A stretch of 64,000 bases of DNA. Origin: Paecilomyces variotii. Its lineage: Eukaryota. Shown here piece after piece: positions 2,878 through 8,413 of the stretch. The stretch is taken from NCBI GenBank assembly GCA_004022145.1, contig RCNU01000007.1, one strand, 5' to 3'. Both the position numbers and the translations under genes were made by a program. Positions within the stretch are counted from its first letter, which is position 1; each line of letters opens with the position of its first letter. The notes below the pieces were generated by a model, which saw only the letters and a program-made list of their open reading frames with translations, made no database searches and was not told where the DNA came from.

Positions 2878-3916
2878 ATGAGCGCCAACCCTTCGGGGAG
2901 AATCCCAGACGCTTGGGAGGACGACTTCGAGAGACAGGTTGATGTACGTATATGCTATCTGTACCCTCCGTACCATACTAGTCTTCTTGTTGAAAGACTT
3001 CATCGCCTTCACAAAGCACTAGACATTGATTGACTTGGACGTTTTCTGCCCCGCATACAGACATCAGCGACCGAAAATCCTTCCGCAGAGAAGAAAGTCT
3101 CTTCAAAAGTGTCAAAGGCCCAGCGGAGAGCGCAGCATGCGGAGTTCAACAGGCAATTATGGGCTGAAGCGTACGTCTTGCTCTTTGCTTACTTTTTCTC
3201 TTTCGCTCTGCGACTGGAAAGCATCTGGCGTCTAATCCAGTCCCAACAGAAATAGCGAATCCTCGCAGTCGTTCCATTTCCTCGAAGCGCGCACATCGAC
3301 AGTTCCATTGAAACAGGACTTCAAACCCACCGTGACCCTCTTGAGCCGAAAACCCCAGATTGCCTCGCGACAGTCATCGTCAGTTGATTCTGCTGCCGCC
3401 GGTATAAGCCGCCTAGGCCTCAATGGAGAGGGAGATGACGACTCGGATGATGAGTCTAAGAAAGCACCAACGATGACACCGGAAGAACGGCAGGCGAAGG
3501 CGCTGCGAGATCGCGAGGAGAAACAGCGCAGGTATGAAGAGGTGCGCGAGCGCTTGTTTGGAAGTCCCTCGGCCACGACATCTGGAGCGTCGTCGCCAGG
3601 GAGTACAACACCACCGAGGCAACATCACAGCGGAGAAGGAAGGGGGAAAGGGAAAGGCCGAGGTGGCGGAAGCCATAGCAGGGAGAAACGCGATACTTCT
3701 TCCGCATCAGGGAGATCAAGACAGCTTTATGATCCCGGATATACAGCCAAGCCGAATTCTACATATTTACAGAAGAGGGACAGACAGCAATCGGCAGAAC
3801 GTTACGACAATGAACAGCAGCAATCTCCGCAGCAGCCTACGCGTGCCCCCAGGGGCCCGGATGGAAGCGGACGTGGAGGATTTGGATTCAGCAACAGAGG
3901 CGCAAAAGCACCTTAA
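2878..3916 (+). CDS. SUZ-domain RNA-binding protein (SZRD1-like), 3 exons
   Basis: Starts MSANPSGRIPDAWEDD; GTACGT introns at ~2944-3060 and ~3171-3249; SUZ-like EERQAKA...YEEVRERLFG and C-terminal PTRAPRGPDGSGRGGF. Confidence 0.8.
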
Positions 3917-4049
3917 GGGTATCAAAGAGAAAATGTTGCAGAATGCTCTCAGCCAGCACAGGTCCCAGACCGCTTGGGCATTCGATATTCCACCAAAGAG
4001 GCAGGAGAATCGTTGCTTTTATTTTACAGATAGCAAAGCTTGAGATCCT

Positions 4050-5210
4050 CTACGGAAGGCCCCTGCCCGAGTTTATTGCATTCGCAAGCTGCGAAGTATT
4101 TGGCCGATTCTCTGCCAAGATGTCAGCTCGAATTTTTTTGATCAGCATCTACACGCTCTACTCACCCGCATATCGCTCATAGCTGTCAAGGTAGAGATCA
4201 TCGCTGCTGGTTGTTGCTTGGACATGCTCATTTGACTCGATAGCATTGACCCACGCGGCCCATCGGCTGCCCATCTCAGGATCGGGCCAGCCACGATATG
4301 GTTTCAGCACTCGACTCAGTCGAAGTATCCAGGGGGCAATATGGATATCGACCATCGAGATATTCGGTCCAAGGAAGAACGGGCCGTGGACGTGCGATGC
4401 ATTCACTAACTTGCTGATATCGTCCTTGAGCTCTTCTGCGTACGTGACCTGCTTCTGCGGGTCTTGCTCTTGGAGGACACGATAGAAGGCCGGTATAATG
4501 TGCCGGTTTATCTGCTGACTGTCAGTCAATGCACTCTGAGATTAGTTGGCGGGAAACGAACATGATCTGCCCAGAGTCGACAATGCGCACGAAGCTTCGC
4601 GTCCCCGGGTGGCAGTAAGGGCGTTCCAAAGTCCAGATCTTCCAGCTGGATATTTTGTCAACGTACATCCTTTGATCGAGCATGATGGGACATCAGTCAC
4701 GTACATATTCAAGCAGCACTGTACTCTCATGGCAACCCCAATTGCCGTGTCGCAACGCAGGGACAAGTCCTCGCGGATTGACCTCCAACAAGGCCTCTGG
4801 TTTCTTGTACGGGTCTACTTCAATATACTGATACGGGATCCCCTTGACCTCCAATGCTATCCAAACACGCTGAACAAAAGGACTGGGTGGAGAGTTTGGT
4901 TAGCCGAGATTGAGCCTCTTTTGCTGCGCTCCTATCCATGGATTGGGAACAGGGGCACCCACCAAAAGCAAGACGCGAACAACTTGAGATCGCTCTCTTT
5001 TGAACGTTTCTTGACTGTCAAGGCGGCCAAGCCTGTGGCTCTCTTGTGGTATGTTTTTTGCTGCGACTTGTTCTGGTCAGACATGGTTTTGTTGCCTCTT
5101 GTTTGTATGTTTAAACGCTTGGAATAGCAGGAGAGGAGGTGATTGCTTGTTGCCGGTCGACCAGGGATAAAATATCGTCTGCTGAGGGAGAAGAGGGGCT
5201 TGAGAGACAT
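4050..5210 (-). CDS. Glutathione S-transferase, omega-like (CPF active site), 5 exons; alternative ATGs at 5210 and 5084
   Basis: Spliced FASCFC-PFVQRVWIALEVKGIPYQYIEVDPYKKP...NPRGLVP (GST-N) and GPFFLGPNISMVDIHIAPW (GST-C); last exon ENRPNTSQLANAINSGRGLP* ends at 4050. Confidence 0.9.
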
Positions 5211-5556
5211 GATGCCTGCTGGAAGCGGGGAACGTGTGATGATGCGGGCAGGCGATGGTGCTTGGAGAGACGGAGCAAAAAAGATACCGGGAATGACGTA
5301 TGGATGCGTTTGGTCCCTTGCCCAACATCGTGCTCCGCAATAATACTCCACACGAACATCACAAGCTCTTTACTCCGTGCGAAGCTGTTTTCTGGTTCAT
5401 GCCATATTTTTGCTTTTCGAGCTATATAGACTTTTGGCTTTCATGAAGCTGAAAACCCTTGCAGGCGTCCAATTGCAAGCAGAGTATCGCTTTGATCGAT
5501 AGGGACAAGAACCACCGGTGCAGCCCAGAAACAATAAGAGGAAAAGATGGACTTAC

Positions 5557-6845
5557 CATAGCTTTCTTTTGCTCCTTTGCTTCCTTGAGCATCCATCGTT
5601 GCACGCTGTTCTTCTTCACGCGGTCGCTTTCCTCGAGTGTATGTCTGTGACCACCGCCCACACCGTCGGCTTTTCCATTGGCCCCGTTCCCATTTACTCG
5701 TTGGATTGTGAAATAGCGCGCTCCATGAGCAGCCGGATGGCCCTCGGGTAGGGTAGGATTCGGTGTCAGGACGCCGAACGGCTGATTCTCTCGTGGGTTA
5801 TCACCTGGATTGAAGAAGGGATTGACCGTCTGCAACTCCGGGGGCAGCTGCGCCATATGGGATACGACGTCTGCCGGTGTCATAGACGCCGGAAAGTGTT
5901 CTGTGATCTTTATCTTGACGTCGCAGAGGTCCCGCTGCCTGGCGGTCCGTCGACGCTTCTTCTTGTTCGGGTCGTCGGACTTGGGAGTGCCTGGCGGCCG
6001 GCCCTTCAATCGACAGTCCCAGTAGTGAGAGACAAAGGGCTTGCGCTTGTATCTTTGCGTAGAGCGATGCGAATAGACGTTATCCACATGCGGGAAGTAA
6101 GTCTGGAATCTACAGCAGATGTGTAAGCACAACGGTCTGCGCGTCTATACAATGGAGAGTTCTCCCGGGCATACTGTTCCTCAGTCAAAGTAATCGTCTC
6201 ATCTACGTTGAAGAGCCGTTCCCTCCACGCCTCCAGATCAGGCGGATACGGAATCAGCTTCATCCCCCCAAAGTGCCCGTCGGATTTCCCAGTCGCAACA
6301 GGCTCCCCACCAGAACCACCCAGCAGCTCCCCTTCCTTCTGCAGCTGCATGATCGCATTATGCTGCAGAGGCTGCTGCTCCAGCGAGTGCAGCATCTCAA
6401 ATTGATTATTACCCCGCGGCTGAAACACACTATTCATCGACGTCTGATTGCGCGCCATCAACTGCGTCTGACCGGGTCGTGGCGGAGGGGGAACAACAGC
6501 ATATTGTCCTCCTCCTCCTCCTCCGCCGCCGCCGCCATTACTATCATTATCACTGCTCCGTTGCTGCTCCTGCGACAGCACCGAGACATCATTCACCTGC
6601 TCTCCCGGTCGTGGAGGCCGCACGAAGGACTTGGACGTCACGGACTGAAGATGTTGTTGCTGCTGCTGGTGCTGTTGCTGTTGCTCCTGGAGCTCTGCGA
6701 TAGTAGACGGAAAGGTCTGGAACGTGGTATCGAACCCCGAAGCGAGTTGCGAGGCAAGGGTGTTTGGGGATAAGTTCTGGAGCGATGCTGCTGATTGCAG
6801 ATTGCGGAGGTTGACGGGGAGGTGTTGGAGATCGGGACTGTCCAT
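5557..6845 (-). CDS. Q/G-rich protein with putative WRKY/FAR1/GCM-like Zn-binding DNA-binding domain; may be the 5' part of a fusion with the downstream GST
   Basis: ATG at 6845 (MDSPDLQHLP); intron 6174-6110 joins EEQ-FQTYFPHVDNVY; motif YWDCRLKG...RDLCDVKIKITE...HRHTL; GTAAGT donor at 5556. If unspliced, the ORF stops at 5422. Confidence 0.75.
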
Positions 6846-7523
6846 GATGAAGCAAAGTAAATAAATAAATAACAAAATAAAAGAAAAGAAACAAATAAAG
6901 AAACTAAATCCAAGATCCAAGATCTTCCACAGAAGATTAGATTGGATGGATAGACACCAGGAGAACCCAGCGCGCGCGCGTGCAGACTGCGACACTCCGT
7001 ACAATATCTAAAAATGATATTAGATAGTTGGTTAGTTAGTAGTATAGTCGTATCAGCAGCAGCGGCTAGATAGAGATCGGTCTGGATCTCTCTCCTGTGC
7101 TTCTCTTTTCGAGATCGCTGCTTTTGTCACAGGGCGGGTATGGCGACGGGGAAGGGTTGAAGCGGCGCTGGGTTTTGCGGTTCGGTTTTTGGTGGAGTTG
7201 TTTAGTTAGCTTGGGACGCGGGAAGAGAAGCCGGGCGGACTATCTACCATACTCTATCTGGTCTAGACTAGTTAGACCATCAGATCCGGGGCGACTACGT
7301 ACAAGGGCCATCTCGAAAGCAGAAAGCTCAAAGTCGATCTCCAGATTTCAAATAAAAAGATAGAGAAAGCTGCACTTAATTCTTTGAATTTCTCGTTCGG
7401 CCATCATATCCTGTGACTTGCCATAAAAAACGCAACCACATGAGACTAAGTACCTAGTAGCCAATTGTTGTCAAATCGCGACAGAATCAGCTATCTCCTT
7501 TAAAAGGTTTTAGCATCTCGACG

Positions 7524-8413
7524 ATGGCTTCACTTGAGTCCCAATACTCCCCTACACTGGAACAATTTCCCCTGAGAAGCCAAAAGATCCATGTACTGGA
7601 TTACGCAGGAGGAGGAAATGCAGCCTACGTGTTCAAAGTCCTCATCGACGGGAAGACATATGCGTTGAAAATGGTAGGTATGACATGACCAAGTGACCCT
7701 ATCGCTCTACATTGAAAAACTCATTTCAGAGGTAGTTCAAATTCGATAATCCACTATTATATCCTTCCAGACTTCGAGGAATATCACGAAGAGCCGTATA
7801 CGACAATTTCTTTATCGAATGCCGCACAAACACGTCTCTTATTAGGCAGGAACTTAACGGCAAAATCACTCCGTTCTGTCATGGTTGGATACTTGTCCCG
7901 ACCAAAACTGAGAGGGATGTCGCTAAACATTTTAATGTTCAATCGTTCCTATGGGATCGGCCACCAAATGCTACCGATGAAAAAGTCCGAGCACTCTTGT
8001 TCGATTGGGTTGATGGTAAAATGGTGTCCCAGATCCGAATCACTGCGCACATTGCAGACCAGATTCGGAATGCGTTAAAAGAGCTCCACCAGGCCTCGAT
8101 AGCTCATCGTGATATCAGGGCAGCAAACATAATGGTCACTAAGGATCGGGTTTATCTCATAGACCTCAACTCTGCGTGGATTCTTTCTTCTCCACCAGAG
8201 ATCTCCTCGCAAAAGCTTAAAGATGCCCAAGAAGAAGACCATCGGAGTCTTGAAGCAGGTTTTGTACTGCTCTCTCAGATTAATGATGGAGAATCTGTTG
8301 CGGATCTGTCCCTACTAGGTGGATTGTCTCTGGAGGAGATATTAACTATATATGATCCGATAAAATGCCACTGGCGACCTCAACCACGCTCATTTTGGCA
8401 TTCCAAACGGTGA
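7524..8413 (+). CDS. Fungal protein-kinase-like protein (FTA2-like kinase fold), 2 exons
   Basis: Exon 1 has the Gly loop YAGGGNAAYVFKV and YALKM; intron 7674-7735; exon 2 has FIECR, CHGW, catalytic HRDIRAANI and LIDLN (DFG-like). Confidence 0.8.

Follow-up and report, generated by a model that had tools for sequence, protein, structure and literature searches.

A zinc-domain and glutathione transferase fusion gene of filamentous ascomycetes with a putative second start inside its fusion intron, as seen at a locus of Paecilomyces variotii

Gene structure and transcripts of the locus

The gene lies on the minus strand of the analysed Paecilomyces variotii DNA (a 64,000-nt stretch of contig RCNU01000007.1, assembly GCA_004022145.1, hereafter the window), flanked by two plus-strand frames, a SUZ-like one at 3236-3916, for which the Pfam match is weak, and a kinase-like one at 7736-8413. 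The latter is divergent and matches Pfam FTA2 (E 8.9e-12), and since a contig of RNA run X1 begins at 7346, this FTA2/kinase-like gene and the fusion gene may share a short promoter region. At the other end, the stop of the glutathione transferase (GST) part at 4050 is 134 nt from the stop of the convergent SUZ-like frame (window 3236-4050), and the two 3′ ends may overlap, as the RNA contigs of the GST extend beyond 3900.

Evidence from RNA was taken from four (X1, X2, X3 and X6) of 24 listed sequencing runs. Runs X1, X2 and X3 represent RNA, since each has the same five introns (6174-6110, 4962-4883, 4704-4646, 4561-4512 and 4165-4112) removed. X6, from a different strain, is unspliced and resembles DNA, and was used for variants only. 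The 5′ UTR of the upstream transcript spans at least 6846-7171 (to 7171 in X1 and to 7111 in X2), the contigs being unable to show the transcription start site or levels. Exon 1 (6175-6845) starts with ATG 6845 and encodes a Gln/Gly/Pro-rich low-complexity region (approximately residues 1-190; pLDDT below 50 over most of residues 7-182 in the structure model) followed by the first conserved helix of the zinc domain. After the 65-nt intron 1, exon 2 (5557-6109) encodes a WRKY-GCM1-like domain and then a long basic helix. The C..C..HxH residues of the initial annotation are all found here, namely C256 (codon 6015-6013), C286 (5925-5923), H378 (5649-5647) and H380 (5643-5641), with a basic insert between the two cysteines. 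The exon 2 product is 100% identical to two P. variotii database proteins, a stand-alone protein of 428 aa and a fused 'glutathione transferase' of 626 aa.

Exon 2 is followed by the fusion intron (5067-5556, phase 0, GTAAGT ... AAG). Within it lie, on the same strand, a TATA-like word TATATAG (5422-5428), which on sequence grounds alone is a candidate internal promoter element and whose TAG is the stop codon of an intron-retaining 452-aa product, and two ATGs in frame with the GST, at 5210 and 5084, both present as first described. The GST is encoded by five exons: 4963-5066 as entered by the fusion splice in X2, 4705-4882 with the thioredoxin-fold part (Pfam GST_N_3, E 1.8e-20), 4562-4645, 4166-4511 with the helical domain (Pfam GST_C_2, E 9e-6), and 4050-4111 including the stop, the last four being delimited by RNA joints. 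The CPF cysteine, C443 of the fusion, has its codon divided by a splice site (4964, 4963, 4882).

The initial annotation had proposed splicing of the upstream frame onto the GST from a phase-0 donor at 5556, and this donor (ATG|GTAAGT) exists in the sequence as claimed. Specifically, a joint 5557-5066 was found in X2, one of the three spliced runs, in a single contig with a short side of 29 letters. It removes a 490-nt GT-AG intron with the acceptor AAG before 5066 and yields a product of 665 aa (...KKAM|SQQKTYH...); annotated relatives, P. lecythidis P0003 among them, share this register. The proposed splicing is upheld by this joint, by a spliced cDNA and an intronless fusion in relatives and by conserved linkage of the two parts, with an acceptor that differs from those suggested. 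The three suggested acceptors (before 5117, 5072 and 5060) are indeed present with an open reading frame, but belong to a set of ten open phase-0 AGs between 5556 and 4963 and by themselves are therefore no more than expected by chance. No joint to them or to the annotated 5421 was listed in the four runs, which is no proof of absence since contigs drop rare variants.

The contigs of X1 and X3 continue unspliced through the donor at 5556. As the joint was seen in one contig of one run, the fusion may be a minor form in P. variotii and may be condition-dependent. Retention of the intron would give the 452-aa product, whose read-through tail is shifted by indels at 5483 and 5523 in X6, so that this product has no conserved end. 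X2 also holds a separate intron contig (5038-5558) that begins 2 nt inside exon 2 and is unlinked to the exon 2 contig; its origin might lie in pruning by the assembler, in reads derived from lariats or in a variant at 5559. In X2 the depths were 11.2 for exon 2, 23.3 for the intron and 33-34 for the GST exons, and in X1 and X3 the GST exons were 2.4-2.8 times deeper than the upstream contig, contig depth being unsuited to ranking parts of a locus. The fact that these depths add up as an internal start predicts was set aside as evidence for the same reason, their unreliability between parts. Nothing that would point to polyadenylation was listed in 5420-5250, contigs being a poor guide to it.

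Conservation of the fusion and of the putative nested starts

A GST was recognized by motif in 100 of the 120 best long homologues and in 113 of 120 homologues retrieved with a Trichoderma query, and the names of fused homologues cover Eurotio-, Leotio-, Dothideo- and Sordariomycetes. Since annotation is able to copy errors, the loci were also checked on DNA. A GST follows the zinc domain on the same strand in 74 of 80 metagenome loci, the remaining six having at most 296 nt of downstream sequence; the orthologues are linked and not consistently unlinked. With the window included, 67 of 81 loci could be parsed, nine being left out for short flanks and five for a diverged anchor motif. They form 38 sequence groups. 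The position of the phase-0 donor is shared by 36 of them, and in 33 of these 36 an AG stands exactly two codons before the YH motif of the GST. Locus L012 is an intronless genomic fusion in a single frame, and L044 is a spliced cDNA that is complete, running from start codon to stop. In eight of the 36 groups the GST is not preceded by any in-frame Met (in four of them the intron leaves at most 143 nt to the YH motif), which means that there it can be made only as a fusion, barring non-AUG starts. Where databases split the locus the two halves carry adjacent tags, and in A. nidulans an early fused annotation (AN5560.2) gave way to a split one with ANIA_10693 and a separate GST. In the trees built for both domains (32 rows), Eurotiales, Onygenales, Leotiomycetes and Sordariomycetes cluster roughly according to kinship. 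We conclude that the fusion is real and old in filamentous ascomycetes. Five proteins (P0258, P0272, P0299, P0309 and P0383; 616-807 aa, one named Exophiala) are diverged fusions with altered linkers, and P0258 has lost the CP motif.

A bare cytosolic GST starting from ATG 5084 had also been suggested, and the comparison bears this out well. An in-frame Met 5-30 codons before the YH motif is found in 28 of the 36 groups, against three and five in the shifted frames, and 27 of the 28 have a purine at position -3, as compared to 53 of 126 other ATGs of the same introns. In 19 of the 28 groups the A of this ATG is followed 4 nt later by the start of a branch motif (ATG NCT RAY), as in the window, where ATG TCT GAC (5084-5076) would serve both as the start of a free 263-aa GST and, through CTGAC at 5080-5076, as predicted branch site of the fusion intron. 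Counting the test sites as well, these loci contain 257 branch-like motifs, and 25 of them have an ATG at that position. As the nested Met is intronic in most groups, it has been preserved despite its removal by fusion splicing. In Aspergillus and Penicillium proteins it belongs to the linker, downstream of the acceptor (77 of 96 in the long-homologue set), and in the Sordariomycete set a linker Met occurs in only 3 of 112 proteins. Furthermore, such a Met marks the start, or lies close to it, in 97 of 120 short GST relatives, and the predicted 263-aa product is identical to the database protein P0458. The free GST appears well supported from these comparisons, and a promoter inside the fusion intron is probable. 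Taken together, ATG and branch motif amount to a compact element with two uses, in which the codons next to a start codon form a predicted branch site, and it is kept over several fungal classes. In L028 and L066 the fusion intron does have the ATG-plus-branch element at its 3′ end, though in a frame other than that of the GST, which could reflect either ongoing loss of the free isoform or an assembly error.

The second nested ATG at 5210 had been read as the start of a mitochondrial GST. It opens a 42-codon leader (5085-5210) with five Arg, three Lys and no Asp or Glu, a candidate mitochondrial presequence in a product of 305 aa. The leader passes a crude presequence rule (eight basic and no acidic residues, hydrophobic moment 0.62), but a peptide read from this intron in a shifted frame passes it too. 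The rule is passed in frame by 5 of 28 groups (4 of 27 relatives plus the window) and by three and none in the shifted frames; the leader is present, and its recurrence does not clearly exceed the shifted-frame control. A shuffle null predicts 0.65 of 28 where five were seen, the rule having been set after some leaders had been viewed; we discounted this significance, the rule being post hoc and the shifted-frame control the weaker result. General selection for an N-terminal extension was likewise rejected, with the frame upstream of the nested Met being open over at least 30 codons in 8 of 27 relatives as compared to 15 and 9 in the shifted frames. In favour of the leader, about 12 of the 17 short relatives that carry an extension have one rich in Arg and almost without acidic residues, mostly of 43-48 aa, cases that gene callers favour, and the A. 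tubingensis protein P0109 has a 43-aa stretch of similar composition. In X6 two of four substitutions in the leader alter a residue (worked out by hand), and both are found in P0461. A lineage-specific third, mitochondrial isoform is a tentative reading, with the balance somewhat against it.

The two domains and their relatives

The GST carries the active-site motif SCFCPF with C443 and matches Pfam GST_N and GST_C. Its closest solved relative by sequence is Omega 3C of Trametes versicolor (PDB 6SRB, E 3.4e-59), which is also best by structure (44% identity, TM 0.91-0.93 of the target) and shares the CP[FY] cysteine and an N-terminal arm H..ATG. The solved 6SRB chain has 261 aa without a zinc domain, and the GST described here differs by a second cysteine (CFCPF). 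The earlier assignment to the omega-like cysteine GSTs agrees with these matches, and by sequence the domain is omega-like. The CP motif is kept in approximately 160 of 165 parsed fused proteins, and in 107 of 120 proteins of the Sordariomycete set retrieved with the Trichoderma query. Relative to P0003 the Sordariomycete GST is about 50% identical, as compared to 67-92% in Eurotiales, Onygenales and Leotiomycetes, and has a long stem branch (0.62), the Sordariomycete zinc domain being 54-72% identical. This divergence is suggestive of a role that changed once the free enzyme was no longer made.

The four ligands of the zinc domain are conserved nearly throughout 108 aligned rows (C256 in 108, C286 in 108, H378 in 105 and H380 in 106). 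Strands are predicted at residues 236-243, 249-257, 285-295 and 356-362, with pLDDT 78-97 in those blocks. In the model (108 sequences) the cysteines end strands 2 and 3, HxH follows strand 4 and a long helix comes next. The insert between the cysteines comprises 29 residues with KKKRRR at 273-278, and the basic stretch is near-invariant; between strands 3 and 4 the model contains a further, low-confidence insert of 60 residues. In the presumed equivalent column of strand 4 the aromatic residue is Phe here, and Tyr, Phe and Trp in 62, 25 and 16 of 108 rows, respectively.

Searches with this domain gave no family match in Pfam (31 members searched) and no match among solved structures in a PDB sequence search. 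The initial annotation had placed it with the WRKY/FAR1-like domains and proposed a fold comparison. WRKY domains do rank first in both Foldseek and VIA, but scores are weak, with a best Foldseek E of 0.73. In VIA, AtWRKY1 reached Z 4.8 (rmsd 2.5, 60 aligned), Aft2 (4LMG) 4.1, GCM 3.8 and FLYWCH 3.2, none attaining 5 and unrelated folds being tied. By language-model features the nearest named family is ALS2CR8/CaRF (PF15299; 0.87, 0.85), a lead only, as this animal family has no GST and does not match the zinc domain in Pfam. A profile search of 1.84 billion representatives gave 369 matches, and the 150 listed were all of the same family, with no bridge to transposases among them. No RNase H-like transposase domain lies behind the zinc domain; the Pfam matches in the fused P0003 are to GST families only.

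Paralogues in the same genome give an indication of the wider relationship. L083 (L083:1303-2274, G000:C5; BLASTP 3e-15) is a stand-alone protein of 323 aa without the long inserts, and its Atlas model matches clusters with RibD_C (TM 0.75), MULE (0.67), GST (0.61 and 0.57), FAR1 (0.60) and AFT (0.55). It forms a bridge that, together with the ligand pattern and the predicted four-strand core, speaks for the WRKY/FAR1-like assignment, the direct fold scores being weak. L082 (L082:997-2982, G000:C78; BLASTP 9e-14) is a 661-aa stop-free frame that joins the zinc domain to RibD_C, a Rib7-like reductase (Pfam E 3.8e-31), and 52 ascomycete proteins in one Atlas cluster are built alike; this is a second enzyme fusion of the zinc-domain family. 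A further copy, L087 (G000:C1:3640521-3641024, minus strand), is a stop-ridden L083-type domain in DNA of 15-22% GC without any Pfam match and looks like a RIP-mutated transposon relic. L089 was rejected as a chance match to an unrelated Nudix-type frame.

In the main text of Babu et al. 2006 (PMC1702500) an insert-containing WRKY-GCM1 family is described with a basic, DNA-contacting insert of 20-70 residues between the cysteines and typically a Trp in strand 4; members are the DNA-binding domains of MULE transposases, yeast Aft1/Rcs1 and Aft2, Candida Rbf1 and plant FAR1. The zinc domain described here resembles this family in its C..C..HxH ligands, its basic 29-residue insert, its predicted four-strand core and its single-copy conservation without a transposase, and differs by the Phe in place of the typical Trp, the extra insert between strands 3 and 4, and a predicted second product from an intronic start. 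Babu et al. also named a filamentous-fungal fusion to isochorismatase and suggested a sensor role, the cysteine GST that is the partner here being unmentioned in that main text. We consider that the zinc domain probably belongs to, and works like, this insert-containing WRKY-GCM1 family, and it is likely to bind zinc and DNA.

Possible functions of the two products

The best explanation for the locus as a whole, which we regard as reasonably probable, is one ancient gene of filamentous ascomycetes with two main products, a fusion regulator and a free GST. The upstream promoter and the splice from 5557 to 5066 would give the 665-aa protein, in which a Gln-rich disordered region, a WRKY-GCM1-type zinc domain of presumed Mutator-transposon descent, a long helix and the omega-like cysteine GST follow each other. 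This form would most likely be a nuclear DNA-binding regulator, to which the GST might contribute dimerisation and a glutathione- or thiol-reactive site. A promoter within the fusion intron together with ATG 5084 would yield the free 263-aa enzyme, whose codons 2-3 would double as the branch site for the fusion splice. The short form may be a thiol enzyme of the housekeeping type, and it could pair with the long form as well.

GST folds also occur in gene regulation in Ure2 and SspA, and SspA chains appear among the GST matches in both sequence and structure searches; neither protein is known to carry a zinc DNA-binding domain of its own. Another analogy is yeast Aft1, a WRKY-GCM1 factor that according to PMC4161868 is controlled by the thioredoxin-fold, glutathione-using Grx3/4. 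In both systems a domain of this type has a thioredoxin-fold, glutathione-using partner, but Grx3/4 are separate monothiol glutaredoxins with an Fe-S cluster and the partner here is a fused GST. By this analogy the reactive cysteine may couple the long form to glutathione or electrophiles, and it is conceivable, if still doubtful, that the thiol state of the GST controls the DNA-binding part.

GSTs are dimers, and the main rival reading takes up this general property: the fusion would bind DNA, with its GST serving only as a dimerisation or folding scaffold or as a chromatin-carried enzyme that passes no signal to the zinc domain. The relaxed constraint on the Sordariomycete GST, as seen from its lower identity and long stem, would fit such a role. 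However, the CP motif is still retained in most proteins of that set, and the paralogue joined to RibD_C and the isochorismatase fusion named in the main text of PMC1702500 suit a repeated recruitment of ligand-binding modules; we regard a mere scaffold as unlikely. It is more improbable still that the WRKY-like fold serves in RNA binding, protein docking or metal storage and not in a sequence-specific transcription factor. The weak fold scores, the low-confidence insert between strands 3 and 4 and the lack of a Pfam match would allow for this, but the near-invariant basic stretch between the cysteines, as in the DNA-contacting inserts of PMC1702500, the Gln-rich N-terminal region and the structural relatives, which are DNA-binding domains, argue against it. 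Two neighbouring genes with occasional read-through splicing, whose fused database entries would be gene-prediction artefacts, would explain the missing joint in X1 and X3 and the split annotations of A. nidulans and some P. variotii entries, yet this very improbable reading is largely refuted by the spliced cDNA L044, the intronless L012, the groups without a GST start, the conserved phase and acceptor, and the frameshifting indels that break the read-through tail of the upstream frame in another strain.

Returning to the preferred reading of a fusion regulator and a free GST, a more far-reaching version can be outlined, which we put forward as speculation that is rather unlikely to hold in all its parts. 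The long form would be a transcription factor that senses thiols, is shared by filamentous ascomycetes and has its output tuned by its own locus; the proportion of fusion splicing would depend on conditions, free GST from the intronic start would dilute the DNA-binding dimers by pairing with the fused GST, some lineages would add a mitochondrial form, and the gene would be one of several in which transposon-derived zinc domains have been wired to enzymes (GST, RibD_C reductase, isochorismatase) as sensors.

Public databases contain the fused sequences, under no other name than GST ('glutathione transferase') or hypothetical. No published description of the fusion was found by concept or locus tag among the main texts of largely open-access papers. 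The zinc-domain type and its fusion to isochorismatase are known from the main text of PMC1702500, and what differs here is the GST partner together with the intronic start. If our interpretation is true, a conserved fungal regulator has been missed, since Pfam has no model for its DNA-binding part and annotations of the locus show either a plain GST or, as in A. nidulans, two genes. The isoforms would be separable, a change of the intronic ATG leaving the fusion protein intact and a change of the donor leaving the free enzyme intact. If true, the fusion would provide a direct link of glutathione chemistry to transcription in moulds.
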